A DNA stretch of 64,000 bases from Methanobacteriota archaeon (GCA_017885605.1 JAFNFT010000071.1:85519-149518), one strand, 5' to 3'. Shown: positions 1 to 44,815, counted from the first letter of the stretch. Notes: a model not told the origin generated them from the letters alone. A program made the numbers and translations.

Positions 1-2
1 TA

Positions 3-830
3 ACGCTGTACCCTTTCTCCTTTACAGAATGCCTTCTCTTACACAACATCCAACCAAAAAACCCCGTTCTTCTCACTAATGAAAGAGCACAACTGAAAAA
101 AGAATTCAATACCTATCTTGAAAAAGGTGGTTTCCCTGAATATAGACTTTACAACAATAATCAGATGCTTAAAGACCTGTACGAGAACATCCTCTATCGA
201 GACGTCATTGCGAGATACCATATCGCAAATGAAAAAACACTCAAAGAGCTCTCCTTTTATTTGTTTTCAAACTATGGAAAAGAAATCAGTTACAATCAAC
301 TGAAAAACCTTCTGAAAACAGGTTCCGCAAACACGATAAAAAATTATATTGAATACCTTGAAAACGCCTATCTTGTATTTTCCGTTCCAAAGTACGATCC
401 CTCTGTTAAAAAACAAATCTATTCTAAAAAGAAAATATATGCTATTGATACGGGACTCATCAATTGTATCTCCTTTCAATTTTCAAAAAATATGGGAAGA
501 ATCCTCGAAAACACGGTGTTCCTTGAATTAAAAAGAAAAAACAAGGATATCTACTATTACAAAAATAAATACGAATGCGATTTTGTCATTACGGACAATC
601 GCACGATAACACAAGCAATACAAGTTACTCAAGAAGTAAACGATACAAATAAAGAAAGAGAAACAAAAGGACTCTTTGAAGTGTTAAAAAAGTTTAACCT
701 ACCATGTGGATTGATTCTCACCTACGATCAAGAAGAAGAAATGACGTATGAAAAGAAAAAAATTTTCATACAACCGGTATGGAAATGGCTGCTTGAAAAA
801 GAGCCACAAGAGATGAAAGCCCATATCTAA
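3..830 (+). CDS. AAA+ ATPase family protein, C-terminal part (DUF4143-like); 5-prime truncated by window edge
   Basis: Open frame runs from nt 3 with no stop, so the listed M at 165 is internal. The C-terminal region looks like the archaeal DUF4143-containing ATPase family. There is no Walker A in the visible part, consistent with the N-terminus lying upstream of the window. Confidence 0.45.
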   Translation, partial: TLYPFSFTECLLLHNIQPKNPVLLTNERAQLKKEFNTYLEKGGFPEYRLYNNNQMLKDLYENILYRDVIARYHIANEKTLKELSFYLFSNYGKEISYNQLKNLLKTGSANTIKNYIEYLENAYLVFSVPKYDPSVKKQIYSKKKIYAIDTGLINCISFQFSKNMGRILENTVFLELKRKNKDIYYYKNKYECDFVITDNRTITQAIQVTQEVNDTNKERETKGLFEVLKKFNLPCGLILTYDQEEEMTYEKKKIFIQPVWKWLLEKEPQEMKAHI

Positions 831-1281
831 GCGACAACGAACTCTGCCGTATAGAGGCTTCTTTTCCAGGGGTGGATGAATCTTATTGCTTCATGTGTAA
901 TCAGCATAGAAGTCTTTGCTATCCTCTTTTCGATTGAGAAAAAAAAAGATAAAATGTACCACGTGTTTGTTGGAAAGAATGAAACAATGTTTTGTCTTCT
1001 TTTTGTTATGTTAATGTCTTTATTAGTGCTCATTTAGTGTTTCATCATCCGTGACGCTTGATAGGAGATGATTTTGGCGATAGAATTCAGAGGGAGAACA
1101 AAAAGAATGAGAAGGAATGCCGTAGCATAAACTATTATTGCGAGCGCTGGGTATTTTGTTCCGAGTTGAAAGTAGGTTCTTATCAAGATTGGAAATCGTT
1201 CGTTTTTTAGAATGGCTATACTCGATTTCTTCCGCAGATATTATATACCTAAAAAATTATTCACCTGTGGCAATTACGATA

Positions 1282-1299
1282 GTAATTGTTAACAATTAC
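1282..1299. promoter_or_regulatory. Perfect 18-bp palindrome gtaattgttaacaattac (overlapped by a caattac-N4-gtaattg inverted repeat at 1271-1289) ~55 bp upstream of the histidine kinase start
   Basis: Read directly; its own reverse complement. Lies in the 520-bp intergenic region before the 1354 gene. Candidate operator. Confidence 0.35.
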
Positions 1300-1353
1300 G
1301 TATTTACCTTACTTGGATGGGATGCTATACGAACTATAAATTAGCGACTCTAA

Positions 1354-3321
1354 TTGGCGGAGAATTTATCACTAAGATGTTTTGGATGGGGATATTTAAT
1401 GCAGAATGTTACTGACCTCGAGCAGCAGACAGAACGAACCGTTCAGGATGCTCGTGAATACGCTGGAAGCATTGTAGAGACGCTCCGAGAGCCTTTGATA
1501 GTGCTTGATGCTGACTTAAAAGTAATCTCAGCTAATCGTTCCTTTTACCAGACCTTTAAAACGAAACCCGAGGAGACTGAGGGGAAATTGGTCTACGACA
1601 TAGGTAATCAGCAATGGAATATTCCAAAGCTCCGAGAGCTTTTGGAGGAGATTTTACCCAAGAATACTTCTTTCGACAACTTTGAGGTTGAGCATGATTT
1701 TCCTCATCTTGGTAAACGAATAATGCTCTTGAATGCTCGATTGGTACCCCAGCCGCCAGCAAAACCCCGAATAATGCTTCTTGCTATTGAGGATATCACA
1801 GAACGCAAGCAGGTTGAACAAATAGCCAACGATGCTCGTGAATACGCTGAAAGCATTGTAGAGACGCTCCGAGAGCCTTTGATAGTGCTTGATGCTGACT
1901 TAAAAGTAATCTCAGCTAATCGTACTTTTTACCAGACCTTTAAAACGAAACCCGAGGAGACTGAGGGGAAATTGGTCTACGATATAGGTAACCAGCAATG
2001 GAATATTCCAAAGCTCCGAGAGCTTTTGGAGGAGATTTTACCCAAGAATACTTCTTTCGACAACTTTGAGGTTGAGCATGATTTTCCTCATCTTGGTAAA
2101 CGAATAATGCTCTTGAATGCTCGATTGTTACCCCAGCCGCCAGCAAAACCCCGAATAATGCTTCTTGCTATTGAGGATATCACAGAGCGTAAATGGGCGG
2201 AGGCGCTGAGGACTTCGGAGATCCGGTATCGTCGGCTCTTTGAGTCGGCCAAAGACGGAATTATAATCCTCGATGCTGAGACCGGGATGATTGTAGACGC
2301 GAATCCGTTCTTAATTGAGATGTTGGGTTACTCAAAAGAACAGTTCCTGGGAAAGTCAATCTGGGAAATGGGGCTTCTCAAGGGTATCGTCACCAACAAA
2401 GACAAATTCATGGAATTGCAACGACAGGAATATGTCCGCTACGAGGATTTGCCGCTGAAAACCGCCGATGGGCGCCGTATCGAGGTGGAGTTCGTCAGTA
2501 ACGTCTATGTAGTGGACCACCAGAAGGTAATCCAGTGCAACATCCGGGACATCACCGAACGTAAGCAGATGGAACATAAACTTAATGAAGCGTATCAAAA
2601 AATCAAAACACATACCAAGGAACTTGAGATGATCAACGAAAATCTGGACAGTTTTGCATATTCTGTCTCTCATGATCTTCGCACACCACTTCGGGCTATA
2701 AGTGGCTTCGCCCAAGTGTTAAAAGATACACACGGCGATAAAATCGACGAGGAGATGCGACATTATCTAAACAGAATTAGTGAAGGCGCTCAAAAAATGG
2801 GCCAATTAATCGATGATCTCCTCGGTTTCTCAAGGGCTACCCGGAGCGAGATAAAATATAAGACGATAAATGTTGAAAATATCGTTAATGATCTCGTAAA
2901 GGCATATCGTGATGTCGAACCGGATAGGGACATTGAATTTATTGTGAATCCATTAGGGGAAGTTGAAGCAGATAAAGAAATGCTAAAGGTTGTTTTTTCT
3001 AATCTTCTGCAAAATGCAGTTAAATTCACTATCGATCGGAAAAAGGCTCGTATTGAGATTGGAAGCGAGCAGAAAGAGGATCATATTCAATTTTATGTTA
3101 AAGATAACGGTATAGGTTTTGATATGAAATATAAAGATAAATTGTTCGTTGCCTTCCAGCGGATCCAAACAGATCAAAGGTTCACGGGTACTGGAATAGG
3201 TCTTACAACCGTGAAAAGGATAGTAACCAAACATGGCGGAAATATATGGGCCAATGGAGAGGTTGATAAAGGAGCAGAATTCTATTTTACTCTGCCTTCC
3301 AAGACGCATGTAAAAGATTGA
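1354..3321 (+). CDS. Cytoplasmic sensor histidine kinase with two tandem-duplicated PAS-like modules, a third PAS, HisKA and HATPase_c
   Basis: H-box VSHDLRTPLRAISGFAQVL and G-box region GTGIGLTTVKRIV...HGGNIWANGEVDKGAEFYFTLP. Three DITERK PAS linkers. No TM segment. Alternative start ATG at 1399. Confidence 0.9.
   Translation: MAENLSLRCFGWGYLMQNVTDLEQQTERTVQDAREYAGSIVETLREPLIVLDADLKVISANRSFYQTFKTKPEETEGKLVYDIGNQQWNIPKLRELLEEILPKNTSFDNFEVEHDFPHLGKRIMLLNARLVPQPPAKPRIMLLAIEDITERKQVEQIANDAREYAESIVETLREPLIVLDADLKVISANRTFYQTFKTKPEETEGKLVYDIGNQQWNIPKLRELLEEILPKNTSFDNFEVEHDFPHLGKRIMLLNARLLPQPPAKPRIMLLAIEDITERKWAEALRTSEIRYRRLFESAKDGIIILDAETGMIVDANPFLIEMLGYSKEQFLGKSIWEMGLLKGIVTNKDKFMELQRQEYVRYEDLPLKTADGRRIEVEFVSNVYVVDHQKVIQCNIRDITERKQMEHKLNEAYQKIKTHTKELEMINENLDSFAYSVSHDLRTPLRAISGFAQVLKDTHGDKIDEEMRHYLNRISEGAQKMGQLIDDLLGFSRATRSEIKYKTINVENIVNDLVKAYRDVEPDRDIEFIVNPLGEVEADKEMLKVVFSNLLQNAVKFTIDRKKARIEIGSEQKEDHIQFYVKDNGIGFDMKYKDKLFVAFQRIQTDQRFTGTGIGLTTVKRIVTKHGGNIWANGEVDKGAEFYFTLPSKTHVKD
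1447..2190 (+). repeat. Near-perfect tandem duplication, 384-bp unit x ~1.9, in frame, duplicating one 128-aa PAS-like module
   Basis: Copy 1 starts at 1447 (gatgctcgtgaatacgctggaagc) and copy 2 at 1831 (gatgctcgtgaatacgctgaaagc). I count only about six substitutions by eye over ~360 bp. The antisense ORFs 1556-1762 and 1940-2146 are near-identical shadows of it. Confidence 0.9.
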
Positions 3322-3351
3322 AAAATGATGTAAAAAAGGTTGTAATAAAGT

Positions 3352-3795
3352 GTGGTAAAAATGGACAAAGAAATAGAAATATTACTGGTAGAAGATAATG
3401 CTACTGATGAAGAATTAGCAACAATCGCATTAAAAAAACACAATATAAAAAATAAACTAAAAATAGCGAGAGATGGCGTAGAGGCCCTGGAATATCTTTT
3501 TGGCTCTGTTGATAGTGAAACGCTTAAATGTTTTGGTCCATTGGTGATTCTTCTTGATCTCAAGTTACCCCGGATAAATGGACTTGAGGTGTTAAGAAGA
3601 ATAAAGTCGCATCCAGAAGCAAAAAAAATACCTGTTGTAATATTGACATCATCCAGTGAAGAGAAAGATATATTGGAATCTTATCAACTCGGTGCAAACA
3701 GCTATATTCGTAAACCTGTGGATTTTAACCAATTTGAAGAAGCGATAAATCAGATTGGTTTGTATTGGTTGGTGCTGAATAAGCAATCTTCGTAG
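3352..3795 (+). CDS. Single-domain response regulator (CheY-like receiver)
   Basis: Matches the receiver-domain D-D-K pattern: LLVEDNATDEEL ... VILLDLKLPRINGLEV ... ILTSS...IRKPV. Probable true start is ATG at 3361. Directly downstream of the histidine kinase. Confidence 0.85.
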   Translation: MVKMDKEIEILLVEDNATDEELATIALKKHNIKNKLKIARDGVEALEYLFGSVDSETLKCFGPLVILLDLKLPRINGLEVLRRIKSHPEAKKIPVVILTSSSEEKDILESYQLGANSYIRKPVDFNQFEEAINQIGLYWLVLNKQSS

Positions 3796-3965
3796 GTACA
3801 AATCTATGAAAAATCGATTCCAAGAGCTGCTGAACTCTTCGATAAAGAAGTTGCTGGGGACGAAGTGCATTGCAAAATGCAGGGCAATGAAAAATGTCTA
3901 TTTAGAATCATGGAGCAAAAAGAATCGGAGGAAAAAACAAGAGAAAGAATCAAAAAGATGTTGAA

Positions 3966-4535
3966 ATGAAAACAGAACAAATAGAGAAGATAAAAAATGC
4001 ATTCAACGATTTACCAGAACACTGGCTATTACTATTCTTAATTAACGCCGAAGATTATCTGGAGAAAAATATAGCAATCCTAAACGAAGTATTAAAACAA
4101 GAAGACGTTGTTGGTGTTTATGTCACCTTAAACCGACCTTATTCAGTGTTAATAAAAATTTTAGAGAAAAACAACATCAATACAGACAAATTATTCTTCA
4201 TAGACTGTATAACAAAAACATTAGGACTGGAAAGAGAAGAAAAGAAATGTTTATTTTTAGAAAATCCACAGAATTTGACAAATATTGCAATAGCAATAGA
4301 TGAAATCATGAGTGCGATACCAGCAAAGAATAAATCGCTGTTTGTTGACCCTATGAGCACATTGTTGATTTATAACAGGGTTGAAACTGTTTCAAAGTTT
4401 CTACATGTTCTCACAGGAAAGATACGGGTTTTGAATTTAAACGGGGTTCTACTTTCTGCAGAGAAAGAACTTGATCCTGAATTCGCAGATCAATTGGAGC
4501 AATTTGTTGACAAAACAGTAGATTTAAGCAAATAA
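3966..4535 (+). CDS. DUF835-like protein (paralog 1 of 4 free-standing copies)
   Basis: C-terminal SLFVDPMSTLLIYNRVETVSKFLHVLTGKIRVLNLNGVLLS...EKELDPEF matches my recollection of the DUF835 consensus (…vlLDglEYLllhNgFe.vlkFlh.l.d.....n..lli.idp.al.e.e...L). FIDCIT is a Walker-B-like strand. No Walker A. Confidence 0.5.
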   Translation: MKTEQIEKIKNAFNDLPEHWLLLFLINAEDYLEKNIAILNEVLKQEDVVGVYVTLNRPYSVLIKILEKNNINTDKLFFIDCITKTLGLEREEKKCLFLENPQNLTNIAIAIDEIMSAIPAKNKSLFVDPMSTLLIYNRVETVSKFLHVLTGKIRVLNLNGVLLSAEKELDPEFADQLEQFVDKTVDLSK

Positions 4536-4586
4536 AATATGAATAAGAGAAAGATGCAAAAAAATTATTGTTGATGGTGTTGTAAG

Positions 4587-5141
4587 GTGCAGGAAGAAAT
4601 TGTAACTATTGATAAAAAAATGATTGAACTTAAAAATTATGAAAGTGTTTTAATAATTGAGAATGTGAAATCCTTACGGGCAACAGTAAATGAAATTTTA
4701 AAAACTCTTCAAGATAAACCTATTATTTACCTTAATTTAACTACTACATATAATTCATTAGTATCAAATTTAAAAAAGGATGGGCTAAAGATAGATAATA
4801 TTCTATTTATTGACTGCATTACACAGTTAGCTGGAGGTACTGTCAGTGATCAAGAGAATGTTTTATTTATTAAAGAGCCAAATGATTTAACCAGTTTAGG
4901 AATCGCGATCTCTCAATTTTTTGAAAACATACTTGGTGAGAAATGGCTTGTTTTATATGGTTTTAGTATTTTTAAAATTTACAATAAAGAAGATATTGTT
5001 TTAAGGTTCATTCAATCTATTTTTGAAAATGCCTCAATGAATAATGCAAAAATTGTTATTTTATCGACGCAAGTAAAGAATGATAGTCTAATTAAAAAAA
5101 TGGCTCATTTTTTTGAAAAAGTTGTTATGGAAATTGAGTAA
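4587..5141 (+). CDS. DUF835-like protein (paralog 2)
   Basis: Same length class and motifs as 3966 (IYLNLTTTYNSL..., ILFIDCITQLAG, LVLYGFSIF..., KIVILS). Preceded by an SD-like gtaaggtg. More divergent than the others. Confidence 0.4.
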   Translation: MQEEIVTIDKKMIELKNYESVLIIENVKSLRATVNEILKTLQDKPIIYLNLTTTYNSLVSNLKKDGLKIDNILFIDCITQLAGGTVSDQENVLFIKEPNDLTSLGIAISQFFENILGEKWLVLYGFSIFKIYNKEDIVLRFIQSIFENASMNNAKIVILSTQVKNDSLIKKMAHFFEKVVMEIE

Positions 5142-5143
5142 AA

Positions 5144-6337
5144 ATGACGCAAGAAAAGAGTGAACAAAATATTGAGCGCTTGGAATTACGGAATAAGGAG
5201 AAAGCAGAATTACTACACAAGAAGCTAGATGAAAAACAAGCAAAACAGCAAGCAAAGCAGAAAGAGCGGGACGCAAAAAGACTAGCAAAAGAACATGAAG
5301 AGAAGTTACGATTAGAGCGATTAGAATTACGCATGAATGAGAAAGCAGAATTACTACACAAGAAGCTGGATGAAAAACAAGCAAGATGGGAAGCGAAGGA
5401 GAGGGGGCGGGAGGAGGAAAGACGCGCAAAGGCGGAACTGAAATCGAAGCAGCGCATACTTGCCTTAAAAGAACTTGAATGGAGGACAAAGGAAAAAGAA
5501 GAACGTATACAAAAAAAGATTGAAGAAAAAAAAGCAAAACAGGAAGAAAAAGAAAAACAACATCGTCTCAAAGAACGTGAAGAGAAATCACGGTTAAAAC
5601 AGGTAGAAATACAAGAGGAAAAAGAGAAACAGAAAAAATTGGAAGAGAAACTTGCAAAACGAGACGCAAAGGAAAAAGAACATGAAGCAATAAGACGTGA
5701 AAAAGAAGAGGAAAGAAGAAAGCAGCAAATTCTTTCTATGAAAGAAATGGAAATAAAAGAAAACGAAAAGGAAGAACAAAAACAGAAACATGTTAAGGAA
5801 AAAAGAGAAAGACTACATTTAAGTGAACTTGATTTCGGAAAAGCAAAAGATGATGGGGCTATAGAAGAACGTAAAAAAGCGGAAAAAATAAAAAATACGA
5901 TGTCTTTAGTAAGAATTGCCGCAGAAGAAAAAGAACTCCGTAAAACCAAAGTTTTTGAACGAAAGATGAAAAAAGAGATGAAAAAAAATGAAAAAGAAGA
6001 ACAAAAATTCAAAATGAAGGAAGAGATGAATGCGAGGAAAAAAATGGCTGTACATATACAAGAAGAAATCATTAAGGGAAAAATCAGTGGTCAAAAAGAA
6101 AGGAGTGATGCATTCGTTGCATTTGATGGTATTGATGAAGAAACCGCGATTTATCTCTTCGAGAATGGATATAACACAGTAGAAAAATTGCGACAGACAA
6201 CGGTTAAAGATCTTATGAAAATTGGTTTAAGGAAAAAAATTGCCCAAAGGATAGTTGCTGAATGTGAAGAATTTGTTGAATGGGACGTGTATGACGCTGA
6301 TGAATATACTACGAGAAAATCCGATACACTACTCTGA
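5144..6337 (+). CDS. Lys/Glu-rich coiled-coil protein with a C-terminal helix-hairpin-helix (RadA/Rad51 N-terminal-like) domain
   Basis: About 300 aa of KEKxELxxKK heptad-like charged repeats, including an internal near-repeat ERLELRNKEKAELLHKKLDEKQA at aa 12 and aa 58 (nt ~5180 and ~5318). C-terminal GIDEETAIYLFENGYNTVEKLRQTTVKDLMKIGLRKKIAQRIV resembles a HhH pair. Its start is 3 nt after the 4587 gene's stop. Confidence 0.55.
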   Translation: MTQEKSEQNIERLELRNKEKAELLHKKLDEKQAKQQAKQKERDAKRLAKEHEEKLRLERLELRMNEKAELLHKKLDEKQARWEAKERGREEERRAKAELKSKQRILALKELEWRTKEKEERIQKKIEEKKAKQEEKEKQHRLKEREEKSRLKQVEIQEEKEKQKKLEEKLAKRDAKEKEHEAIRREKEEERRKQQILSMKEMEIKENEKEEQKQKHVKEKRERLHLSELDFGKAKDDGAIEERKKAEKIKNTMSLVRIAAEEKELRKTKVFERKMKKEMKKNEKEEQKFKMKEEMNARKKMAVHIQEEIIKGKISGQKERSDAFVAFDGIDEETAIYLFENGYNTVEKLRQTTVKDLMKIGLRKKIAQRIVAECEEFVEWDVYDADEYTTRKSDTLL

Positions 6338-6409
6338 ACCCATAGAGGTTTCACCCGATATAAAAAGAGGTATTTGTAAAGTAAAATTTATATGCGATCA
6401 AACTATTCG

Positions 6410-6440
6410 TAATTTATATGTAATTTATATGTAATGTGTA
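6410..6440. promoter_or_regulatory. Direct repeat cgtaatttatatgtaatttatatgtaatgtg (unit tatatgtaattta x2) ~140 bp upstream of the KaiC-histidine kinase gene; TATA-like
   Basis: Read directly. AT-rich tandem motif in the 237-bp intergenic region. Confidence 0.25.
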
Positions 6441-6574
6441 TTGTGAGCGGGTAAGATGGGATGCAAAAAAACAGTTTCAATTAAGATTAGATTAACAAGA
6501 ATGTTATATATCACTTTATTTGCAACTATAATTCCGTTAATTTCTTTCTTTAAAAAACAAATTGCTTTAGATTA

Positions 6575-9500
6575 TTGGTGAAGGAGATGCAAAACAAAAA
6601 AAATCTCAATCAATTTTCCCAACAGCATCAGAGTGTTGTTCAAGAAGTTGAACAAATATTACAGGAAAAAAAATACGTCATACCACCTGAAAAACTACTA
6701 TCGCTTGATAATAATTTCCCATCTGCATTCAATGTTTCTTTTACGGGTATAAAAGAGTTTGATCAACTTCTTGATGGCGGATTTACTAAGGGTTCAATTA
6801 TCTTGCTTGCCGGATCATCAGGAAGCGGCAAAACTATCTTTTCCTTCCAATGGCTTTTTGAAGGAATTAAAAACAATGAAAATGGAATCTATATCACTCT
6901 TACAGAACCGCTTTTCAAAACCTTAGAAAATCTTGAAAAACTAAGTTTTTACAATAAAGAAGCTATAGAAAATGAAAAATTGAGAATCGTTGATCTGCGG
7001 AAGATATATGAAAAGGAAGGTTTTGACCAGCAAAAAATCCTCGATTTTATTGAAAACGAGGTCAAACGAACAAATGCAAAACGACTATGCATTGATTCGA
7101 TTACCGCTATCGCGTATCAGCTTGATGATAGGGCCAAGATTAGAGCTTTTATATTTGCTCTAGGTACGACACTTGCAACACTCGGTTGCACAACTGTTTT
7201 AACCAGTGAAGTTTCTGAAATGAATAAATACTCTAAGTACGAAGTCGAGGAATTTATATCTGATGCAATTTTACGATTTGATCAAATTAAAGAAAAAGAC
7301 GAACCACAAAGAATAATACAGATAATCAAAGTGAGAGGGAGAAACCATAGGTCAGATGACATTTATTTCAAAATTACAAAGGATGGCATCACCGTTTTTC
7401 CTAAACTCAGGATTCCGCTTGAACATTTTTCTACGACAGAACGGATCTCGATGGGCATTTCTACGCTGGATGACATGTTAGGCGGAGGTATTTTTGTTGG
7501 TTCTTCTACACTCATAACTGGTTCGCCTGGAACCGGAAAATCTACGTTGGGTTTAAGTTTCCTTGCTGAGGGATTGAAAAATGGGGAGATGTGCCTGTAT
7601 GTTGGATTCGAAGAAAGTAAGAAACAAGTATTAAGAAACGCCAAAAATTTTGGATGGGATTTCGAGAAGTCCGAAAGAAATGGTCTTCTTGTCATGCGAT
7701 GTATTTATCCGAACGAAAAGCATCTTGAAGAACATCTAGCAGATATAAGAAAAATAGTGGAAGAAAAAAAAATTAAAAGATGTGTTGTTGACCCTCTCTC
7801 TGCCATTTCGAGTGCGTTCTCACCGGATGCATTTATAAGTTTTTCAAAACGACTTAATGGATATTTGAAAACTCGTGAGGTGACTCCTTTATTTACATCA
7901 ACCACAAACTCGCTCATAGGCAATACAAAAGATGTAGATTCGCATATTTCTACGATATCAGATAATATTATCTTGTTGCGTTATGTTGAAATGCAAGGTG
8001 ATGTACAGTTTGTAATAAACATTATCAAAATGAGAGGGAGTGAGCATAGCAAAAATCTAAGAATGTACAACATAACAGATAAGGGCTTAGTCGTCGGTAA
8101 AAGTCTCGAAGGTTATGAAGGTGTTACAACTGGTGTCAGTAAAAAAATTGCTGAACTCGAGAAAGAAGGTTTGGAACTTAAGGAAGTTATCAAGCAGAAA
8201 GAAATGGCGGAAAAGGTTCTGCGAGAGAGCGAGGAGAAATTTAGATTATTGTTTAATGACTCTCCTTTAGGTATTGCACTGGTAGATCCAGAAGGAATCA
8301 TTAAAGAAGTAAACAGCAGCTTACTTCAGCTGTTATCAATACGAAAAGAAGAATTTATCGGTAAAAACTTTGTTCAATTAATCTCAGTTTATGGTTTAGA
8401 TGTCCAAGAGCAAACCTCAGATTTCAAAAACAGAATTGCCGGAAAACCATCAAAAAGTGAAATAACATTTTTATCTAAAGACAACAAGAAAGCGACGATG
8501 ACGGTACAGAGTTCGATTATTAAAAGTAACGATGTAATAATTGGTGTTCTCTTCATTTTAGAAGACATCACCGAGCGTAAGCGGGTGGAGGGTATGCTAA
8601 GTGAGACGAATCAATACCTCGAAAACCTATTCAACTATGCAAATGCTCCTATCATCGTCTGGGATGCACAATTCGCAATCACCCGTTTCAATCATGCCTT
8701 CGAATCGTTGACCGGCCGGAGCGTGAAAGATGTTATCGGAAAAACTCTTGAAATTCTCTTTCCCCCAGACCTGGTGGAAAGTTCAATGGAACTAATTCGA
8801 AAAACGCGGGAAGGGAAACAATGGGAGGTGGTCGAGATTGATGTTCTGCATCTCGATGGATCAAGGAGGACCGTCCTCTGGAACTCAGCCAACCTTTTCG
8901 CCCCAGACAGTAAGACTCTCATCGCCACAATTGCGCAAGGTCAAGATATCACCAAACGCAAGCGAGCACTGGACGAATTGAAGGTAGCTAATGAAAAACT
9001 TAATCAAATAAAATCAGATTTTTTCGAAGTGACAACTCGCGAAATAAGATCGCCGTTAACTACAATAAAAGGATATATGGAAATGTTGTCAAATCGAACC
9101 TTTGGTGAAATAAATGATGAGCAAAAAAAATATCTTGATATAATGTTACGGAATACAAATCAGCTTGACAACCTTGTATCAGATCTTGTGGGCATTTCAA
9201 GCATTGAATCAGGGGATATGACTTTTACTTTGAAAAAAACGAGTATTAGTAAGATGGTGAATGAAGCAGTTGAAAAAATACAGTCATCTGCAGATGTAAA
9301 AAACATTGCAGTCAATGTAGAAATAGAGGATCAAATACCTGATTTAATCGTTGACCAAGATCGGATAAAACAAGTCCTTATAGATATACTCGGGTACACA
9401 ATAAAATTCTCACCAGATAAAACTACGGTTAATATGCGCGCAAAAAAACAAGAAACCGATGTTTTATTCGAGATTCAAGACCAAGGATTGAATATACCAA

Positions 9501-9769
9501 AGGATAAACAGAAAAAGATTTTTAAGGCGTTTTACCGAGCTGAAGAAGGTAAAAGTAAAGAATACTTAGGAGGCGGTATTAGACTTGCACTATCACGAGG
9601 TATTATCACCATTCATGGCGGCAAGATGTGGGTAGAAAGCGAGGATGAAAAGGGAAGTACATTTAGATTTACACTGCCAATAAAACCAGTTGATAATATT
9701 CAAACAAGATATAAAGAATCTGACATATTCGAATCAAAAAAAGATGATGAAAACATTGAAATTAATTAA
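6575..9769 (+). CDS. Fusion protein: two KaiC/RecA-like ATPase domains + coiled coil + 2 PAS + HisKA + HATPase_c (KaiC-histidine kinase)
   Basis: Walker A LLAGSSGSGKTIF (domain 1) and LITGSPGTGKSTLG (domain 2), with KaiC-like FDQLLDGGFTKGS and LDDMLGGGIFVGS leaders. EDITERK PAS linkers. H-box TTREIRSPLTTIKGYMEML. G2 region GGGIRLALSRGIITIHGGKMWVESEDEKGSTFRFTLP. Listed start is GTG; ATG at 6587 is more likely. Confidence 0.85.
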   Translation: MVKEMQNKKNLNQFSQQHQSVVQEVEQILQEKKYVIPPEKLLSLDNNFPSAFNVSFTGIKEFDQLLDGGFTKGSIILLAGSSGSGKTIFSFQWLFEGIKNNENGIYITLTEPLFKTLENLEKLSFYNKEAIENEKLRIVDLRKIYEKEGFDQQKILDFIENEVKRTNAKRLCIDSITAIAYQLDDRAKIRAFIFALGTTLATLGCTTVLTSEVSEMNKYSKYEVEEFISDAILRFDQIKEKDEPQRIIQIIKVRGRNHRSDDIYFKITKDGITVFPKLRIPLEHFSTTERISMGISTLDDMLGGGIFVGSSTLITGSPGTGKSTLGLSFLAEGLKNGEMCLYVGFEESKKQVLRNAKNFGWDFEKSERNGLLVMRCIYPNEKHLEEHLADIRKIVEEKKIKRCVVDPLSAISSAFSPDAFISFSKRLNGYLKTREVTPLFTSTTNSLIGNTKDVDSHISTISDNIILLRYVEMQGDVQFVINIIKMRGSEHSKNLRMYNITDKGLVVGKSLEGYEGVTTGVSKKIAELEKEGLELKEVIKQKEMAEKVLRESEEKFRLLFNDSPLGIALVDPEGIIKEVNSSLLQLLSIRKEEFIGKNFVQLISVYGLDVQEQTSDFKNRIAGKPSKSEITFLSKDNKKATMTVQSSIIKSNDVIIGVLFILEDITERKRVEGMLSETNQYLENLFNYANAPIIVWDAQFAITRFNHAFESLTGRSVKDVIGKTLEILFPPDLVESSMELIRKTREGKQWEVVEIDVLHLDGSRRTVLWNSANLFAPDSKTLIATIAQGQDITKRKRALDELKVANEKLNQIKSDFFEVTTREIRSPLTTIKGYMEMLSNRTFGEINDEQKKYLDIMLRNTNQLDNLVSDLVGISSIESGDMTFTLKKTSISKMVNEAVEKIQSSADVKNIAVNVEIEDQIPDLIVDQDRIKQVLIDILGYTIKFSPDKTTVNMRAKKQETDVLFEIQDQGLNIPKDKQKKIFKAFYRAEEGKSKEYLGGGIRLALSRGIITIHGGKMWVESEDEKGSTFRFTLPIKPVDNIQTRYKESDIFESKKDDENIEIN

Positions 9770-9792: not shown

Positions 9793-10380
9793 ATGTTAAA
9801 AGATGAAACAAAAAAATCTATTGAACAAGCAATACAAATGGACAAACATGGCGTCATAATTATGATAGAACTTCCAATAAATGCTTATTTTGAAATGAAT
9901 TCTTCCACCATTAAAATATTGACAAACCATGGTTTTCAAGGGATATACATTAGCTTTCAGAGACCGTTTAATAACATATCTTCCTTTTTTGAATCTGAGG
10001 GAATAGACACTAATACACTATTATTTATAGATGCTGCAACAGCCCTTTCCGGTGAAAAACAACATGAAGATGCTCGTTGTATACATGTCTCCCAAGAACT
10101 CGATATTGATGAACTGGTAAAAGCCATCTATCTTTCTCTGCCAAAGCTAAAAAGCCAAAAAAAGTTTATTTTTATCGATTCATTAACTACAATATCTCTT
10201 TACAAACCATTATCTCAAATAATGAGATTTTCAGAATTCCTGATGAGGACAGTACGTAAAGAAAACGAGGAAAATGTTATACTCATTTTTAACGTGGCAA
10301 AAGATCTCGCCCAAAAAAAATTTATCAGAGAGGTAGCCTTCCATGTGGACCAAGTAATAAGTGTGGATAATAATGAATGA
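9793..10380 (+). CDS. DUF835-like protein (paralog 3)
   Basis: GIYISFQRPFNNI...LLFIDAATALSG...KFIFIDSLTTISLYKPLSQIMRFSEFLMRTV...VILIFNV: same pattern as 3966. Starts 24 nt after the KaiC-histidine kinase stop. Confidence 0.45.
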   Translation: MLKDETKKSIEQAIQMDKHGVIIMIELPINAYFEMNSSTIKILTNHGFQGIYISFQRPFNNISSFFESEGIDTNTLLFIDAATALSGEKQHEDARCIHVSQELDIDELVKAIYLSLPKLKSQKKFIFIDSLTTISLYKPLSQIMRFSEFLMRTVRKENEENVILIFNVAKDLAQKKFIREVAFHVDQVISVDNNE

Positions 10381-10930
10381 TCTAGAAAAAATTTCTCAAG
10401 AATTAAACAATCTGCCAAAAGGCTGGATTGTAATGCTGGAAACTTCTCCAGAAAAAATGTTAGAGGTTTCTTTGTCAACGATAAAATTTTTATCTGATGA
10501 AAAAAACTACATTGGAATTATCGTATCAGCAAGCAGACCTCAAAAAAATTTGATACAACTCTACCAACAAAAAAAAATCGATATTAAAAAAATTCTCATT
10601 CTCGACTGTATCTCAAAAAGCCAGAGTTTGGACCTGGAGGAAGCGAGCAATGTTATATATCTTGAATCAGTATCTTCTCTTACAAATATTTCACTTGCAA
10701 TAACAGCGAGTATTCAACGAATACCGGGAGATAAATTTGTTTTTATTGACTCTATCAACAGCATGCTTATTCATAACAAACCTGAAGTTTTTGCTCAATT
10801 CATTCATGGGATTTTAACTAAGCTGAGAATTGGCGGGATAAACGGTTTACTTATTTCTCTAGAACATGAAACGAACAAAGAGATACATGCAGAAATTGCA
10901 CAACTGTGCGATCGGATTGTGAAAATATAA
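10361..10930 (+). CDS. DUF835-like protein (paralog 4)
   Basis: KFVFIDSINSMLIHNKPEVFAQFIHGILTKLRIGGINGLLISLEHETNKEIHAEIAQL is the strongest DUF835-type match of the four. Overlaps the upstream paralog by 20 nt and the downstream kaiC by 25 nt. Confidence 0.5.
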   Translation: MWIIMNDLEKISQELNNLPKGWIVMLETSPEKMLEVSLSTIKFLSDEKNYIGIIVSASRPQKNLIQLYQQKKIDIKKILILDCISKSQSLDLEEASNVIYLESVSSLTNISLAITASIQRIPGDKFVFIDSINSMLIHNKPEVFAQFIHGILTKLRIGGINGLLISLEHETNKEIHAEIAQLCDRIVKI

Positions 10931-11853
10931 TGGATGAAAAAAAGAGTAAACAAAGTAATATCTTTGACATGGCTAAAATCAAAGCAGAGATTGAGAATAA
11001 GCTAAAGGGTACTGATGACAAAGGTTATTCCACGGGAGGAACTTTAGAACAAAAAACGCAACAGTTGCATGAAACAAAAAATGAAGCTAAAACGGGAAAA
11101 AAATTTGTTTTAACAGGCGTTTCCGGATTTGATGAACTATTTGAAAATGGCATACCAAAAGGTTCCAATATTCTCGTTGCTGGAGGTGCAGGTTCAGGAA
11201 AAACAATTTTTTGTCTACAAACACTGTGGTACCATATCTTATGTGGGGAAAAATGTTTTTACATGAGTTTTGAAGAATCTGAAAAAAGATTAATGGAACA
11301 TATGGAGGATTTTGGTTGGAATCCAGAAAAACTTCTCGCATCAGGTAACTTTAAAATCAAGAGGTATCTACCGAGCGATATTCATTATGTATCTGAAAAA
11401 GGTAACGATAATGCAATGTTTGCTAAAGAAGAGGACAGTCAACTTTTACAGTTAGAGCCAGTAACTTTGGAAGAAGGATTTAATCCTGATTTTGTTGTCA
11501 TTGATTCACTTACGGCAATTGCCTCGGCATTTATGGGAAAAGAAGGTTCGTACAGGTTTTATGCTGAGCGACTCTTCAGGTTTTTTGAAAATATGGGGAG
11601 TACAAATTATTTTATAACAGAGACCGGACAGATGCCAGAAACTTTTTCACAGACCGGTGTTGAGGAGTTCTTAGCTGATGGGGTGATTGTTTTGTATAAT
11701 ATTAAACGAGAAAATATGCGGGAACGCGCTATAGAGGTTTTGAAAATGCGTGGTACAAAACATCAAGAGAGAATAGTTGCAATGAAAATTTCCGAAAAAG
11801 GTATGGTTGTGTATCCAAAACAGGAGATTTTTGGTGAGATTCACACTAAATAA
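10906..11853 (+). CDS. Single-domain KaiC-like (RecA superfamily) ATPase
   Basis: Walker A VAGGAGSGKTIFCLQ preceded by the KaiC-like GVSGFDELFENGIPKGSNIL. Walker B DFVVIDSLTAIAS. Confidence 0.8.
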   Translation: MRSDCENIMDEKKSKQSNIFDMAKIKAEIENKLKGTDDKGYSTGGTLEQKTQQLHETKNEAKTGKKFVLTGVSGFDELFENGIPKGSNILVAGGAGSGKTIFCLQTLWYHILCGEKCFYMSFEESEKRLMEHMEDFGWNPEKLLASGNFKIKRYLPSDIHYVSEKGNDNAMFAKEEDSQLLQLEPVTLEEGFNPDFVVIDSLTAIASAFMGKEGSYRFYAERLFRFFENMGSTNYFITETGQMPETFSQTGVEEFLADGVIVLYNIKRENMRERAIEVLKMRGTKHQERIVAMKISEKGMVVYPKQEIFGEIHTK

Positions 11854-12777: not shown

Positions 12778-12788
12778 CTCAATTCTCC

Positions 12789-14540
12789 TTACGTATGCCT
12801 ACATCTCGAATCAGCACTCGCAGGTGCGCCCTCGACAGTACCAGCATACCTCCCTCTACTGTAAAATTCATAATACACATTCCCATTCGGAAAATCAAAA
12901 CTCCAACTCCATGGATGCGAAGTATCAGGGTTATTCGAATTATTCCAGATTATCCAATTGCTCTGTATCAAAGAATAATTATTTTCCTGCCCCCAAGTTC
13001 CATGAGATGGTTCAGGGGAGACGTGTTTACAGACACGGATATCATCATAATATGAATAACTTCCATAGTGATTCTGTAATGAAATTTCTCCTGCGTTTGA
13101 ATATGCAGAAGAAGGAGGAGTCTCACTACATGTTTTTGTCTTCCCATCACATGTTATTGTAAACGATGAGCCACTTACGGTAATATTGAATGGTTTCCAT
13201 GATCCCGTTCCAACGGCAGTTCCTGTTACTGAACAACCGGTAAAAAACGCCCAAGCGGTATAGGGTGGTCTGAGGTAAGAAAGACCTTCATTGGTTCTTG
13301 CGTCCATTCTAGATTTATACCCGGTGTTACCCGTATAATTTCCTCGCCATCCGACTTCTGCAATGGCATTTGATGAAAGGTATACTTTTCCTTCAATTGT
13401 TCCATTGATGAATCCAGTATAGGTTGCATTTGAACCCAGAACGGTGTGGCCATAAGACCCGCTCGTTGAACCTCCACCACAGACGAGATATCCATTTTCA
13501 ATTCTTGGGTAAACTCCTGAGAGTTTGTGCCTTGTCCATTTACTGAGATCCCCACTAAAATCATCAAAGAAAATGAACGTATTCGTTCCATTACTTTTGT
13601 TCGTAGCAGCACTATTTCCATAATATAACCAGATTGAGCTGCCTGTTGTATTCAAATTGTCAGGTATTTTGACCCAAAAGGTAGCATTACTGCCTGTGTT
13701 TTTCTGTTCTATCCAGTAGTCCAGTTTGGTTGTATTATCAGTATAGCTGATAAATCGTATATCGCCAAAGTCGTTTCGTGCTTTGTTATTGATATAGACA
13801 GTGTCCTCACTATCAGTCCCTGTCCCATTTTTCACAATAATTTTTACTTGGTAATTTGATCCAGCGCCACTTGCGCTTCCTATGTCATGCTTCTTACGGT
13901 ACCCCCAAGAGTTGTTCCACCAATTTTCATTCTCGCCCCATGAAGCATTATCTGCAGAATAACGATACCAGAGCGTTACAATCTCCAATCCTGAATCGCC
14001 AGTAGCATTGACAGTAAGTGGAGAAGATGTTTGATGGTAGGGACTAATTGTATCAACAGAAGTAACAAGTGACGGAATAGTCGTTGTTTCTCCCTCCTGT
14101 AGAACTCCCATCATCATTATAGAATTGCTATCCCTATCAACTACAGTAGCCTCGATTTGCAAACCTGTCATATTCCCAGATAAATTGTAGTGGTAGACGA
14201 GCTGCTCACTAATATCCCATCGATAATTTCCATTAGAATCAATCAATAAATCGTGAACAGTCTTACTAATCCTTGTTCCCCCTACGATAAATGAGACTGT
14301 TGCGTTTTGATCCAGTGAATCTCCACCACGATGTTCTAGTACTATATTACTCCCTTCAATTGATCCGACAATATCTACAGAAGGTACCGACGGAGAAAAT
14401 GGATACGACATAACAATGAAATACAATATGGAGAAAAGTGCTACACCTATCCCTACCATTAAAATAGCGCCAATGACTTCAGAGACAGCACCATCCAGTT
14501 TTTTCCATTTCATTTTCATATCCATTATACCACTCTTCAA
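12789..14540 (-). CDS. Large pilin-like surface protein A: archaeal type IV pilin N-terminal domain + LamG/DUF2341-like beta-sandwich region
   Basis: KWKKLDGAVSEVIGAILMVGIGVALFSILYFIV matches the archaeal pilin N-terminal (class III signal) pattern. IWLYYGNSAATNKSNGTNTFIFFDDFSGDLSKW is typical of DUF2341/LamG. Many N-glycosylation sequons. Paralog of 15033-17282. Confidence 0.65.
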   Translation of the reverse strand: MKSGIMDMKMKWKKLDGAVSEVIGAILMVGIGVALFSILYFIVMSYPFSPSVPSVDIVGSIEGSNIVLEHRGGDSLDQNATVSFIVGGTRISKTVHDLLIDSNGNYRWDISEQLVYHYNLSGNMTGLQIEATVVDRDSNSIMMMGVLQEGETTTIPSLVTSVDTISPYHQTSSPLTVNATGDSGLEIVTLWYRYSADNASWGENENWWNNSWGYRKKHDIGSASGAGSNYQVKIIVKNGTGTDSEDTVYINNKARNDFGDIRFISYTDNTTKLDYWIEQKNTGSNATFWVKIPDNLNTTGSSIWLYYGNSAATNKSNGTNTFIFFDDFSGDLSKWTRHKLSGVYPRIENGYLVCGGGSTSGSYGHTVLGSNATYTGFINGTIEGKVYLSSNAIAEVGWRGNYTGNTGYKSRMDARTNEGLSYLRPPYTAWAFFTGCSVTGTAVGTGSWKPFNITVSGSSFTITCDGKTKTCSETPPSSAYSNAGEISLQNHYGSYSYYDDIRVCKHVSPEPSHGTWGQENNYSLIQSNWIIWNNSNNPDTSHPWSWSFDFPNGNVYYEFYSRGRYAGTVEGAPASADSRCRHT

Positions 14541-15013
14541 AATAAAAATTTGAAAACAAAAAGTGAGATCACACCAAGAACAAAACTGTACCGAAGGCCT
14601 GAAGAAAGTTTACCATCCATCATGAACCCTCCGATCATACCTGCACCAATACCCTGTGTAAAAACAAATGAACTCAATGCGTATTTCAACGCCACGGGAT
14701 CCACTTTATTCATCATGACACCAGCCATTTCAACCGTGCTGCTCTGACTCTTGAAAAATGAGGCGAACAGCGTGTTATTAAGAATCATAATTATTCCGAG
14801 GAACACAAAAAAACTCATGATAATTACAACGGTATAGGTAGCCATTTCCGATTTTCTCTGCTCCTTAATATTATTAATTTGATTGATTTCTTTTGCCGCT
14901 GCTTTAAAAACCTTTGACGTCATCCCCCCCATTCTCAATCCTGTATTTATCGAAACAACTATTCTTTTGACAATAGGAGATCTCATCCGTTCAGCAAAAT
15001 TCTCAAACTTCAT
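13955..15013 (-). repeat. Segmental duplication copy A (pilin 5-prime ~590 bp + tadC 3-prime ~480 bp); copy B at ~16695-17745
   Basis: The pilin N-terminal ~95 codons are essentially identical between 14225-14520 and 16950-17245. The tadC 3-prime 477 bp (14537-15013) is ~90% identical to 17260-17740 by eye. Confidence 0.6.
14537..15013 (-). pseudogene. 5-prime-truncated duplicate of the tadC/flaJ-like gene (C-terminal 158 codons only); may be expressed as a small 3-4 TM protein
   Basis: MKFENFAERMRSPIVKRIVVSINTGLRMGG... aligns residue-for-residue with the last 158 aa of the 586-aa protein at 17260-19020 (KVFENFAERMRSAIIKRIVVSINTGLRMGG...). Confidence 0.5.
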
Positions 15014-15032
15014 TTTTTTTTATCTCGCCTCT

Positions 15033-17282
15033 TTACATTTTTTGGCATCTTGCATCAGCGCTCACGGGTGCGCCCTCGATAGTACCAGCATACCTTCCTA
15101 TACTGTAAAACTCATAATATCCCACCCCTTTGGGAAAGTTAAAACTCCAACTCCATGGACTATTTAAGTCAGGATTAGTATCACCTGTATAAATAATCCA
15201 GTTATGTCCTTCTCCTCCACCTATATATGTTTCTTCAGCTCCAGCTGAGCTATAAGATGGTTCTATTGCAATGCATTTTCTAACAAAAACATCATCAAAA
15301 GAAGCTGTTTCTCCCATGCTTCCTCCATTAAGAGCAAGGTAACCTGGACGACCACTTCTTGGCCATGAATTAAAGGCACCCGGCGTCCCACCAATATTCC
15401 AGACTCTTCCTCTGACATTTGTTCCATCATGATAGATTTCAAACCAATACCATGTTCCAAAAGACCATGCAGTTCGAGTATATGATGTTCCCCAGGCTAC
15501 ATGGTCATCTAAGAATTGTTCTGTCGTCTTGGTAACGAAATCATGAAACACATAATTGTAACTTTCACCATTAGCGGCACTAGTTTTAATGCTTAGACCT
15601 GCCCTTCCATCGGCATCTGTTCCAGCCTCTGGTCTCACTTTTGCTCTAATTGCATAATAATTGGATTGAGGAGCTGATGTTGCAATACATTTCTTAGGGT
15701 CGGCAGTTCCTGTGGATGTCTGTCTCATTATCCCGCCTGTTTCGCTCCAAGTGCCTTGGTATGTAGTCCATTTGCTTGCATCAATAGAATTATCGTCAAA
15801 GTTATCAAAGAAATTAAAGGTGTTAGTTCCATTACTAGCATTTGAAGCAGATGGATTGCCGTAATAGCAATAAATGCTGGTACTGCTATTCAAGCTGTCT
15901 TTTACTTCTACCCATACCTTTGCAAGTCTGTTTGGGGCTGTTCCGGATACATCTTCTACCCAGAAATCAAGCGAGGTTGTACCACTCTTATTAGTAAATC
16001 TTAAGTCTCCACCTATGTTTTTCCCGCTAGGAAAGTTTGATGAGTGTCCACCCAAATTAAAATATGCCCCTGAAACACCAGACGTTTCCCCTATCATTAA
16101 AAGCACTTGATAGTTAGGTCCAGCTCCAGCTTGACCAGTAATGTTAATCTTCTTTCTATAAATCCAATTAGCATCATACCAGTTCTCACTATCCCCCTCA
16201 CCAACTGTAGCATTTACATATATTTGATCAATGTAAACATCATTGCTATTATTTTGTGCATCACAACGGAATTTAATCTTCATATCAGATGGGAACGTAT
16301 AACTCGTTTCATTAATCCAAACAATTTCATAATAAAACTGATCGTTTACAAAATCAGTACCAGCAACAAAAGAAGCTACAGTCTGCCAAATAGCTCCATC
16401 ATAATACTCCACAAAAAAATCATGACCATCGCTCAGACCCTCAGATCGAAACCAGAAACTAATAGTAATACAAGTATAACCCGGTGAATGTACATCCACC
16501 CCATTTGTATGATAAAAAGACGATGCATTACCACCATTACCCTGTATATCTGCAGCTTTGCTTCCCTGATGAGCGTATGTACCACCTGTATAAAGAGAAC
16601 AATTCACTCCACCGTCACTGTAATTACCAAATCCTCCTTCAAAATCATCATATGTCAATGTAGTCCAATCCACGGTCCAATTATCATTACTCCAACGATA
16701 ATAAAGTGTAACGTTATTCAACCCAGGATCACCAATAGCATAAACAGTAAGTGGAGAAGATGTTTGATGGTAGGGACTAATTGTATCAACAGAAGTATCT
16801 AGTGAAGGAATAGTCGTTGTTTTTCCCTCCTGTAGAACTGTCATTATCATTATAGAATTGCTGTCTGTATCAATTACGGTAGCCTCGACTTGCAAATTTG
16901 TCATAGATGAATTGTTGTAGACAAGCTGCTCACCTATATCCCATCGATGATTTCCATTAGTATCATTTAAAAAAAATCCAACTGTATTACTAATCCTTGT
17001 TCCCCCTACGATAAATGAGACTGTTGCGTTTTGATCCAGTGAATCTCCACCACGATGTTCTAGTACTATATTACTCCCTTCAATTGATCCGACAATATCT
17101 ACAGAAGGTACCGACGGAGAAAATGGATACGACATAACAATGAAATACAATATGGAGAAAAGTGCTACACCTATCCCTACCATTAAAATAGCGCCAATGA
17201 CCTCAGAGACAGCACCATCCAGTTTTTTCCACTTTATTTTCACAGCCATCAACCACCCTTCAAAATACAAACTTAAAAACAA
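15033..17282 (-). CDS. Large pilin-like surface protein B (749 aa): type IV pilin N-terminal domain + LamG/DUF2341-like domains with an extra ~170-aa insert
   Basis: N-terminal 180 aa nearly identical to protein A. YCYYGNPSASNASNGTNTFNFFDNFDDNSIDASKWT is DUF2341/LamG-like. Conserved C-terminus YYEFYSIGRYAGTIEGAPVSADARC. Likely true start is MAVKIKWKK (~17249). Confidence 0.65.
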   Translation of the reverse strand: MFLSLYFEGWLMAVKIKWKKLDGAVSEVIGAILMVGIGVALFSILYFIVMSYPFSPSVPSVDIVGSIEGSNIVLEHRGGDSLDQNATVSFIVGGTRISNTVGFFLNDTNGNHRWDIGEQLVYNNSSMTNLQVEATVIDTDSNSIMIMTVLQEGKTTTIPSLDTSVDTISPYHQTSSPLTVYAIGDPGLNNVTLYYRWSNDNWTVDWTTLTYDDFEGGFGNYSDGGVNCSLYTGGTYAHQGSKAADIQGNGGNASSFYHTNGVDVHSPGYTCITISFWFRSEGLSDGHDFFVEYYDGAIWQTVASFVAGTDFVNDQFYYEIVWINETSYTFPSDMKIKFRCDAQNNSNDVYIDQIYVNATVGEGDSENWYDANWIYRKKINITGQAGAGPNYQVLLMIGETSGVSGAYFNLGGHSSNFPSGKNIGGDLRFTNKSGTTSLDFWVEDVSGTAPNRLAKVWVEVKDSLNSSTSIYCYYGNPSASNASNGTNTFNFFDNFDDNSIDASKWTTYQGTWSETGGIMRQTSTGTADPKKCIATSAPQSNYYAIRAKVRPEAGTDADGRAGLSIKTSAANGESYNYVFHDFVTKTTEQFLDDHVAWGTSYTRTAWSFGTWYWFEIYHDGTNVRGRVWNIGGTPGAFNSWPRSGRPGYLALNGGSMGETASFDDVFVRKCIAIEPSYSSAGAEETYIGGGEGHNWIIYTGDTNPDLNSPWSWSFNFPKGVGYYEFYSIGRYAGTIEGAPVSADARCQKM

Positions 17283-44529: not shown

Positions 44530-44815
44530 GATTTGCCAGCGCAACAGATGCAAGAGTCATCGGCATGGCAAATAGAGTCAATGAGCTCATCGCAAATCAA
44601 ACAAGCATCATCTACACTAAAAGACGTAACTGGGATGTGAAAAAACGACTTATTTCATCAGTTGACAAAGTCAAAGACATCTTGAATTACAAGTCACAAA
44701 CATCATTTGAAGATGGTGTTTAACAACTGTATCCGTGGTTTACAAACAACTGGAATAATATTGAGGAATCTGCTGAGTTTCTCAAGTATCTGAAAAATCA
44801 ATGGGAAAAGAATAT
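44530..44815 (+). pseudogene. Decayed 3-prime remnant of an NAD-dependent epimerase/dehydratase gene, homologous to the C-terminus of 42331-43389, with an in-frame stop
   Basis: ...ELIANQTSIIYTKRRNWDVKKRLISSVDKVKDILNYKSQTSFEDGV*QLYPWFTNNWNNIEESAEFLKYLKNQWEK aligns with ...AHLINDLTGNPNGIKYIERRNWDVKTRLLSSVDKAKDILDYKPQTSFEAGAEQLYQWFVENWTLIQKSAEFAGYKKQQWEH. TAA at ~44720. No start or N-terminal part. Confidence 0.6.

Follow-up and report, generated by a model that had tools for sequence, protein, structure and literature searches.

Two nearly identical PAS modules in an archaeal sensor histidine kinase gene: an old array that was probably homogenised recently by recombination

Concerted evolution of prokaryotic repeats, by gene conversion or by unequal exchange, is a known process. 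The concerted evolution of repeats in prokaryotes is reportedly the subject of a review that Santoyo and Romero published in FEMS Microbiol Rev in 2005. Known cases include rRNA operons, tuf and surface-protein genes, whereas the repeats described here are sensor modules in one kinase gene; what they have in common is the likeness of repeats within a genome, a sharp-ended tract in conserved sequence, incongruent trees for different segments and a variable copy number. Literature searches found no specific prior description of concerted evolution of PAS modules. Archaeal kinases are frequently cytoplasmic proteins that have several PAS or GAF domains, and whole-gene tandem duplication has been reported among them, with nearly identical adjacent genes (Galperin et al., 2018, PMC5847659). 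The archaeal multi-PAS kinases of that survey are like the protein studied here in that they are soluble, have a number of PAS domains at the N-terminus together with a HisKA/HATPase_c core, and are accompanied by a neighbouring stand-alone receiver, but the near-identity in the survey is between adjacent genes and here it is between homogenised modules within one gene. The gene lies in a 64-kb stretch of DNA assigned to a Methanobacteriota archaeon (64,000 nucleotides, referred to below as the window; positions are counted from its first nucleotide). The locus is a case of ordinary concerted evolution, a well-understood process, with unusually clear internal evidence, and nothing points to a system of a new kind. 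The reading we prefer, with a rough probability of 0.82, is that an old two-module array was recently homogenised in the window lineage by recombination from module 1 to module 2.

The protein has 640 residues when read from the ATG at 1399 and 655 if translation begins at an alternative TTG at 1354, with the ORF intact to 3321 on the + strand; both forms have counterparts in the databases (P0002, 640 aa, 100%; P0121, 655 aa). Its architecture is PAS–PAS–PAS–HisKA–HATPase_c, and the matches to PAS_4, PAS_9, HisKA and HATPase_c all exceed the curated Pfam cut-offs. PAS_4 scores 87 bits against a cut-off of 23.1 (whole-protein E = 1.3e-24) in two stretches, one per module, PAS_9 scores 95.7 bits against a cut-off of 27, and HisKA and HATPase_c score 65 and 83.6 bits. 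The H-box SVSHDLRTP (core SHDLRTP) is readable in the translation. With an H-box, HisKA together with HATPase_c, and a receiver encoded nearby, the protein is predicted to be a sensor histidine kinase of the HisKA class. The gene and its surroundings are laid out as follows.

1399–3321, + strand, sensor histidine kinase gene, cytoplasmic product (640 aa from the ATG at 1399; from the ORF list, Pfam and database proteins)
2224–2559, + strand, third PAS domain (PAS_9 at aa 301–402 and PAS at aa 291–400 of the 655-aa ORF)
2647–3303, + strand, kinase core (HisKA at aa 432–496, HATPase_c at aa 540–650; from Pfam and sequence)
3361–3795, + strand, stand-alone receiver (response regulator) gene (Pfam Response_reg, E = 2.7e-20)

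The receiver gene starts 40 nt past the kinase stop and is kept downstream of the kinase in the related loci L001–L011 (gene tables of L001–L012, on contigs reaching that far). The third PAS domain is unrelated in sequence to the first two (23% aa identity by tblastn of the module against the window). Other genes of the window are KaiC-like or encode MEDS kinases, archaeal type IV pilins and members of DUF families typical of archaea.

The first two PAS domains form the near-identical pair. Tandem Repeats Finder returned 1447–2186 as 1.9 copies of a period of 384 with 98% matches and 0 indels. Comparison of bases at a lag of 384 gave 8 differences in 360 nt (1447–1806 against 1831–2190, 97.8% identity), and BLAST of 1447–1802 against 1831–2186 gave 6 mismatches in 356 nt (98.3%).

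1447–1809, + strand, PAS module 1, loop type P (121 aa, DAREYAGS...IEDITERK; from module extraction and the best Pfam PAS_4 stretch, aa 42–153 of the 655-aa ORF)
1810–1830, + strand, inter-module linker (outside the near-identical repeat and matching neither flank)
1831–2193, + strand, PAS module 2, loop type P in the window lineage (121 aa; from module comparison and segment trees)

Amino acids are changed by the copy differences at 1466 (G/A, Gly/Glu), at 1540 and 1542 together (Ser/Thr) and at 1744 (G/T, Val/Leu); those at 1599, 1608, 1803 and 1806 are synonymous, and a further one, at 1809, lies just past the 360-nt stretch. Over the 363-nt modules there are 3 nonsynonymous and 6 synonymous differences (dN/dS 0.011/0.079), which are too few to show selection between the copies. 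This was one of the checks suggested in the preliminary description of the locus, which had recognised two almost identical PAS modules in frame inside an intact histidine kinase ORF. The ORF (1354/1399–3321) and the two PAS_4 matches bear it out on that point, and the near-identity holds as well, although its count of about six differences between 384-bp copies becomes 8 in 360 nt and the similar stretch does not reach 384. Searches with the module by tblastn and blastn found no third copy in the 64-kb window, so a donor module elsewhere in the window was ruled out.

An AlphaFold model of residues 1–145, built on a 52-sequence alignment, has a mean pLDDT of 81.9 for module 1 with core blocks at 89 or above, and its strands and helices follow in PAS order with N- and C-terminal helices. 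Foldseek matched the model to PAS/LOV structures at probability 1.00 with E-values down to 6e-07 (TMq 0.53–0.68 among the 50 matches listed). Given that the curated Pfam threshold is passed and that the model of module 1 has the PAS fold, modules 1 and 2 are assigned to the PAS domain. DosP, the PAS domains of BvgS and Rv1364c, NifL and short LOV proteins resemble module 1 in fold and in their flanking helices but share only 10–21% sequence identity with it. The PDB holds no close sequence relative (the best, 3a0r_A, is insignificant at E = 0.49), neither a LOV cysteine motif nor any known ligand pattern for haem or flavin was recognised in the module, and the PDB sequence and fold searches returned only generic PAS relatives from which no ligand can be deduced. 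The model of the full-length kinase (10 orthologues, mean pLDDT 55.9) was too poor for use.

Relatives were found by protein search, after which the DNA of the matching genes was fetched and compared with the window gene (W). All of the sequences are metagenome assemblies and they contain only five distinct two-module alleles. The closest proteins are P0002 (100%) and P0003 (99%). Further two-module proteins are found at 85–88% (P0005/P0006, P0011 and P0014) and one-module proteins at 82–86% (P0043, P0074, P0092 and P0064); one more of the latter, P0042, carries an extra inserted segment; BLASTP lists it at 62%, but alignment A1 puts its identity to the window protein at 84%. At the DNA level, a JGI contig (L005) is 100% identical to window positions 1–4822, two-module structure included, and a 271-kb contig from another sample (L001) has the same gene order at 95.5% nucleotide identity over 8.3 kb and represents a different population. 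Four two-module relatives that share the DNA between the modules have kinase cores only 90–99% identical to that of the window, and the nearest named genomes are those of an uncultured Thermoplasmatales archaeon and a Methanobacteriota archaeon. A linker-pattern scan of metagenome contigs for more two-module alleles gave a single further locus (L093), which is the contig of P0006, a protein identical to P0005 of L002 except in its annotated first residue. P0018 (515 aa, 100%) was considered as a one-copy allele, but it starts in the module-1 tail on a 3.1-kb contig and was read as a contig-end cut. As an RR-RR arrangement lies upstream of the kinase in L002, L006, L007 and L010 and is absent from W and L001, the synteny from which we take these kinases to be orthologous is only partial.

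The two modules are not simply a unit repeated twice, because the 24 nt between them match neither flank. This junction (1807–1830, AAG at 1807–1809 plus the linker) reads AAGCAGGTTGAACAAATAGCCAAC and codes for KQVEQIAN; it agrees with the upstream flank (1423–1446) at 13 of 23 nt and with the downstream flank (2191–2214) at background level. A fresh 384-nt duplication would predict 384 matching positions, but no more than 360 are similar, and at both ends the similarity drops from 98.3% over 356 nt to background within a few bases. A simple tandem duplication should give full-period similarity with unit joined directly to unit, where 24 nt are unmatched, and should have close relatives with one copy and no such junction, where the junction is common to L001–L005. 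It is identical in W, L001, L003 and L005, with 1 change in L002 and 3 in L004. Because this DNA is shared despite a kinase-core dS of 0.22–0.40 between W and L002–L004, the duplication predates the split from L002–L004.

These observations bear directly on the preliminary description, which took the repeat to have arisen very recently, by tandem duplication of 384 nt in what would have been a one-module gene. In favour of such a de novo event are the identity of 97.8% over 360 nt, the maintained frame without indels and the existence of one-module relatives. On that account, however, 24 of the 384 nt would be left matching neither flank, the existing 24-nt linker would have to be recreated by chance, and the two-module state would not be expected in L001, 95.5% identical across the locus, where it is nevertheless present. 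We consider this origin very improbable. The comparison of orthologues proposed at the same time found both one- and two-module genes, with the two-module junction shared by L001–L005, and the relatives at core dS 0.22–0.40 that share it have modules only 84–88% identical to each other. Because the modules differ in relatives with the same junction, the near-identity in the window is best explained as secondary homogenisation of an old repeat.

The possibility that the repeat is an assembly artefact (a false expansion or a longer array collapsed, as raised in the preliminary description, or two strain variants joined in tandem) has to be taken seriously in metagenome assemblies, where a near-identical repeat of 360 nt exceeds typical short-read k-mers, and the JGI contig that ends inside the repeat (that of P0018) indicates that assemblers struggle here. 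Yet L005 has the identical two-copy structure with identical copy-specific differences and L001, from another sample, has two copies with differences of its own; the unique linker, which is kept in L002–L004, requires genuine reads that run from module 1 into module 2; and among the 8 copy differences those at 1540, 1744 and 1806 (with 1809 in addition) are fixed in both W and L001. With the two-copy structure present in several assemblies (L005, L001 and L002–L004), an artefact is very improbable, although from the assemblies alone a collapsed third interior copy is possible.

The history of the array can be followed through the differences between modules in the relatives. All 16 extracted modules are 363 nt long without indels, and they were divided into segment A (nt 1–288) and segment B (nt 289–363, the last 75 nt), with type-separating sites taken from an alignment of 14 modules. 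Overall, modules 1 and 2 are 87.6% identical in L002, 86.2% in L003 and 84.3% in L004, but the differences are unevenly spread. In segment A the two modules of these loci are 89–94% identical (dS 0.12–0.41), whereas in segment B they are 63–67% identical with dS above 1 and dN about 0.3, the dS values being noisy over only 75 nt. Segment B exists in two types, P (...PQPPAKPRIMLL) and G (...YGEANKTEMILL), which are separated at 100% bootstrap in the segment B tree. In the model of module 1 strands run from 105 to 116 and from 125 to 132 around a loop at 117–124, which places segment B at the end of H-beta, the H–I loop and I-beta.

1735–1809, + strand, segment B of module 1, type P (end of H-beta, H–I loop with PQPPAKP, and I-beta; from the alignment and the model)
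2119–2193, + strand, segment B of module 2, here also type P (from the alignment, identities and segment trees)

The module-2 position holds type G in L002 and L004. In L003 the order is reversed, G then P, so the history is more complex than one conversion and includes more than one rearrangement. The segment A tree has no grouping by type, the modules of W and L001 falling together at 100%. Because segment A is not grouped by type and its dS is low, modules 1 and 2 appear to have exchanged sequence repeatedly in several lineages.

In the window, in contrast to L002 and L004, both modules are of type P. Segment B of W module 2 is 88% identical to module 1 of L002 and 60% identical to module 2 of L002. 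W and L001 together contribute four modules, and these group as a single clade with 100% support in segment A and 96.6% in segment B; in the segment B tree the clade adjoins module 1 of L002 (85%). The two W modules have lineage-specific substitutions in common, for example at 1483 and 1782. Because both modules are of type P and share these substitutions, module 2 would seem to have been overwritten by module 1 in the window lineage; the m1-to-m2 direction is itself something we infer. Over the whole module, identity is 97.5% between the two modules of W, 83.7% between the module 2 sequences of W and L002 and 91.7% between their module 1 sequences, so that the two repeats of one genome resemble each other more closely than either resembles its counterpart in the other genome, even though the duplication is older than the split; together with the incongruent segment A and B trees and the discrete tract this is the pattern of concerted evolution. 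The lineage-specific shared states run from 1483 to 1782, with type-P states at 1791 and 1794 in both modules, and from the informative sites the tract covers at least 1483–1794 and at most about 1447–1805. Its ends sit in the conserved DAREYAE and LLAIEDITERK stretches.

1447–1802, + strand, homogenised tract, module-1 copy (6 mismatches in 356 nt against 1831–2186)
1831–2186, + strand, homogenised tract, module-2 copy, the probable recipient (in segment trees module 2 of W and of L001 lie in the type-P clade beside module 1 of L002)

The event can be placed in time relative to the relatives. W has a dS of 0.079 between its two modules and L001 one of 0.025; for the kinase core, dS is 0.030 between W and L001 and 0.223 between W and L002. 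Because W and L001 have the module differences at 1540, 1744, 1806 and 1809 in common, the overwriting is older than the split of these two; it thus falls after the split from the 92%-identical relative (L002) and before that from the 98.8%-identical one (L001). On the scale of the gene family the homogenisation is recent, yet older than the divergence of two populations. Since the W/L001 split the modules have gained 8 substitutions in 747 nt and the rest of the gene 15 in 1176 nt, an about equal rate. A W-specific T occupies both 1578 and 1962, which are homologous sites, and this one site pair, for which we roughly estimate the chance of coincidence at 0.01–0.05, suggests a further short exchange between the modules after that split.

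We propose the following course of events. An ancestral duplication would have given the arrangement of module, 8-aa linker and module, and the modules would then have diverged into types P and G, chiefly in the H-beta/I-beta hairpin. In the window lineage homologous recombination would have copied module 1 (type P) over module 2, most likely in a single event of non-reciprocal gene conversion with a tract of about 312–359 nt that left the old linker and the flanks intact. Afterwards a few substitutions were presumably gained and probably one more short patch exchanged (1578/1962). The expected consequence would be two modules of the same ligand specificity in series before the third PAS domain and the kinase core. 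A repeat prone to recombination in this way would also explain the one-module relatives and the mosaic similarity seen across segment A in every relative. The suggestion in the preliminary description that the locus is a snapshot of sensor-domain expansion by unequal crossing-over is upheld in so far as recombination between the repeats is concerned; the expansion itself is not young, as the junction is old.

Unequal crossing-over between sister chromosomes could nevertheless have produced the same homogenised array in two steps, still by recombination. The first step would be an exchange in segment A between misaligned modules, giving a P-P-G array and, reciprocally, a one-module gene of type G; in the second, an exchange in LLAIEDITERK would remove G and leave P-P with the old linker. 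The predicted reciprocal product exists, since the one-module genes L006, L007 and L010 combine the module-1 upstream flank with a type-G segment B; arrays of three to five modules of the same PAS family are common in homologues, and the tract has its 3' end inside the conserved ...IEDITERK stretch. Against this, the route takes two events and conversion a single one, the search of close relatives yielded no three-module allele, and the second exchange would have had to fall in a target of only about 30 nt. By sequence alone the two routes are indistinguishable, and we regard the two-step route as possible but unlikely. The same one-module genes have the gene order RR-RR-kinase-RR, as does the two-module L002, and the kinase-core tree places them within the clade of two-module genes (88–91% bootstrap; L002 with L010 at 79%); this is a neighbour-joining tree of moderate support that could itself be affected by recombination. 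Because one-module genes nest among two-module genes in this way, the copy number of the module appears to be dynamic among the relatives, and L006, L007 and L010 may be deletion products, of the kind expected if modules 1 and 2 misalign and recombine.

Returning to homogenisation by gene conversion as the preferred reading, it follows that near-identity of tandem domains does not date their duplication, since an old repeat can be given the look of a new one by recombination. On a small scale the locus shows cleanly how the sensor region of a two-component kinase changes, through conversion, swapping and loss of modules next to a steadily evolving kinase core. It also draws attention to a PAS subfamily in which highly similar arrays recur across distant phyla. 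At least two modules of this subfamily are present in 113 of the 120 best homologues, a figure biased upward by a two-module query that favours multi-module proteins, and four are present in 76. A pair of modules at least 90% identical in protein sequence occurs in 35 of the same 120. More distant homologues in alignment A2 are 51–62% identical to module 1 at the amino acid level, with one outlier at 23%. It is conceivable, though we hold it doubtful, that this subfamily (arrays of two to five modules, in archaea and many bacterial phyla) is unusually prone to intragenic recombination, and that the number of modules and the type of H–I hairpin evolve fast and are selectable, and not subject to neutral turnover. 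If so, the input of such kinases would have a built-in means of retuning, and the window would be a snapshot of it in which loop type G has been replaced by type P.

Homogenised arrays appear to be a recurrent property of the subfamily because, besides the 35 proteins with pairs of at least 90% identity, the bacterial locus L094 has an array in which a 426-nt unit occurs in 3.9 copies at 93%, with 100% identity between neighbouring copies over about 430 nt, and L015 and L022 have module arrays at 82–88%. The bacterial arrays (for example P0015/L094 and P0036, labelled 'two-component system CheB/CheR fusion protein' or 'PAS domain S-box protein') belong to the same PAS subfamily but have a unit of 142 aa as against 128 aa in the window, the linker being about 14 aa longer, and usually contain three to five copies whereas the window gene is archaeal and has two.

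Two arrays in related genes show further states of the PAS modules, P and G being the two forms of the module's last 75 nt, the H-beta/I-beta hairpin:

L003 (a two-module relative), 208-2127: kinase gene, module order G, then P.
L094 (contig of the bacterial MAG GCA_041643095.1), 1778-3435: PAS array of protein P0015, four modules with a 426-nt period.

The order in L003 is the opposite of that in L002 and L004, the other two-module relatives. As the initial 288 nt of each L003 module nevertheless still resemble the module in the same position of L002, the hairpin segments appear from these sequences to have been exchanged between modules. The L094 modules belong to the same PAS subfamily as those of the window kinase, and the adjacent copies 3 and 4 are identical (100%) across about 430 nt; judged by the sequences, their homogenisation or duplication is more recent than that in the window.

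The PAS-encoding half of the window kinase gene (1400-2800) has a G+C content of 43-48% (kinase core of the same gene, 35-37%; whole window, 36.3%). This difference in composition may hint at a separate origin of the sensor region, which would fit its numerous bacterial homologues. Between the kinase genes of the window (1399-3321) and of L001, the 95.5%-identical relative from another sample (5001-6923), there are 23 differences, and when these were polarised with L002 as outgroup the derived state lay on the window side at 18 and on the L001 side at five. Candidate causes of this asymmetry are faster substitution along one branch, a history of recombination in L001, and consensus effects confined to one assembly.

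A pair of archaeal pilin-like paralogues adjoins the T2SSF (17260-19020) and T2SSE (19017-21029) genes:

12789-14540 (-): pilin-like gene (Pilin_N + DUF2341).
15033-17282 (-): its paralogue, with the same domains.

In DNA they have repeated stretches in common, with 13961-14828 corresponding to 16694-17551 and 12785-12915 to 15029-15159; identities are 80-94% and the spacing is about 2.72 kb, but 2.24 kb for the 80% pair. The pattern may represent a further instance of duplication plus conversion, as proposed for the kinase PAS modules.

Immediately 3' of the kinase/receiver pair lies a KaiC-like gene cluster (3966-5141, 6575-9769 and 9793-11853). Its members and the neighbouring ORF are:

Cluster: small DUF7504/DUF7090 proteins and further KaiC-like ORFs.
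Cluster: KaiC-KaiC-PAS-PAS-HisKA-HATPase_c fusion, 1064 aa.
5144-6337 (+): Lys/Glu-rich ORF, 397 aa, helix-hairpin-helix domain at the C-terminal end.

The 397-aa ORF carries tandem repeats of a 141-nt unit (1.8 copies at 81%, with a weaker third copy), and L001 has a similarly sized gene at the equivalent position.

One further multi-PAS protein is encoded in the window:

24759-29906 (-): 1714-aa protein, HisKA + HATPase_c (aa 178-402), then at least six PAS domains.

The placing of HisKA/HATPase_c close to the N-terminus, ahead of the PAS domains, is an uncommon order. Stretches of its gene have 84-93% DNA identity to the large gene upstream of the kinase in L002.

Finally, a 274-nt direct repeat (43084-43357 vs 44541-44814, 74% identity) has both copies inside a glycosylation gene cluster: the first falls in the final part of an NAD-dependent epimerase/dehydratase gene (42331-43389), the second directly downstream of a methyltransferase gene (43569-44528).
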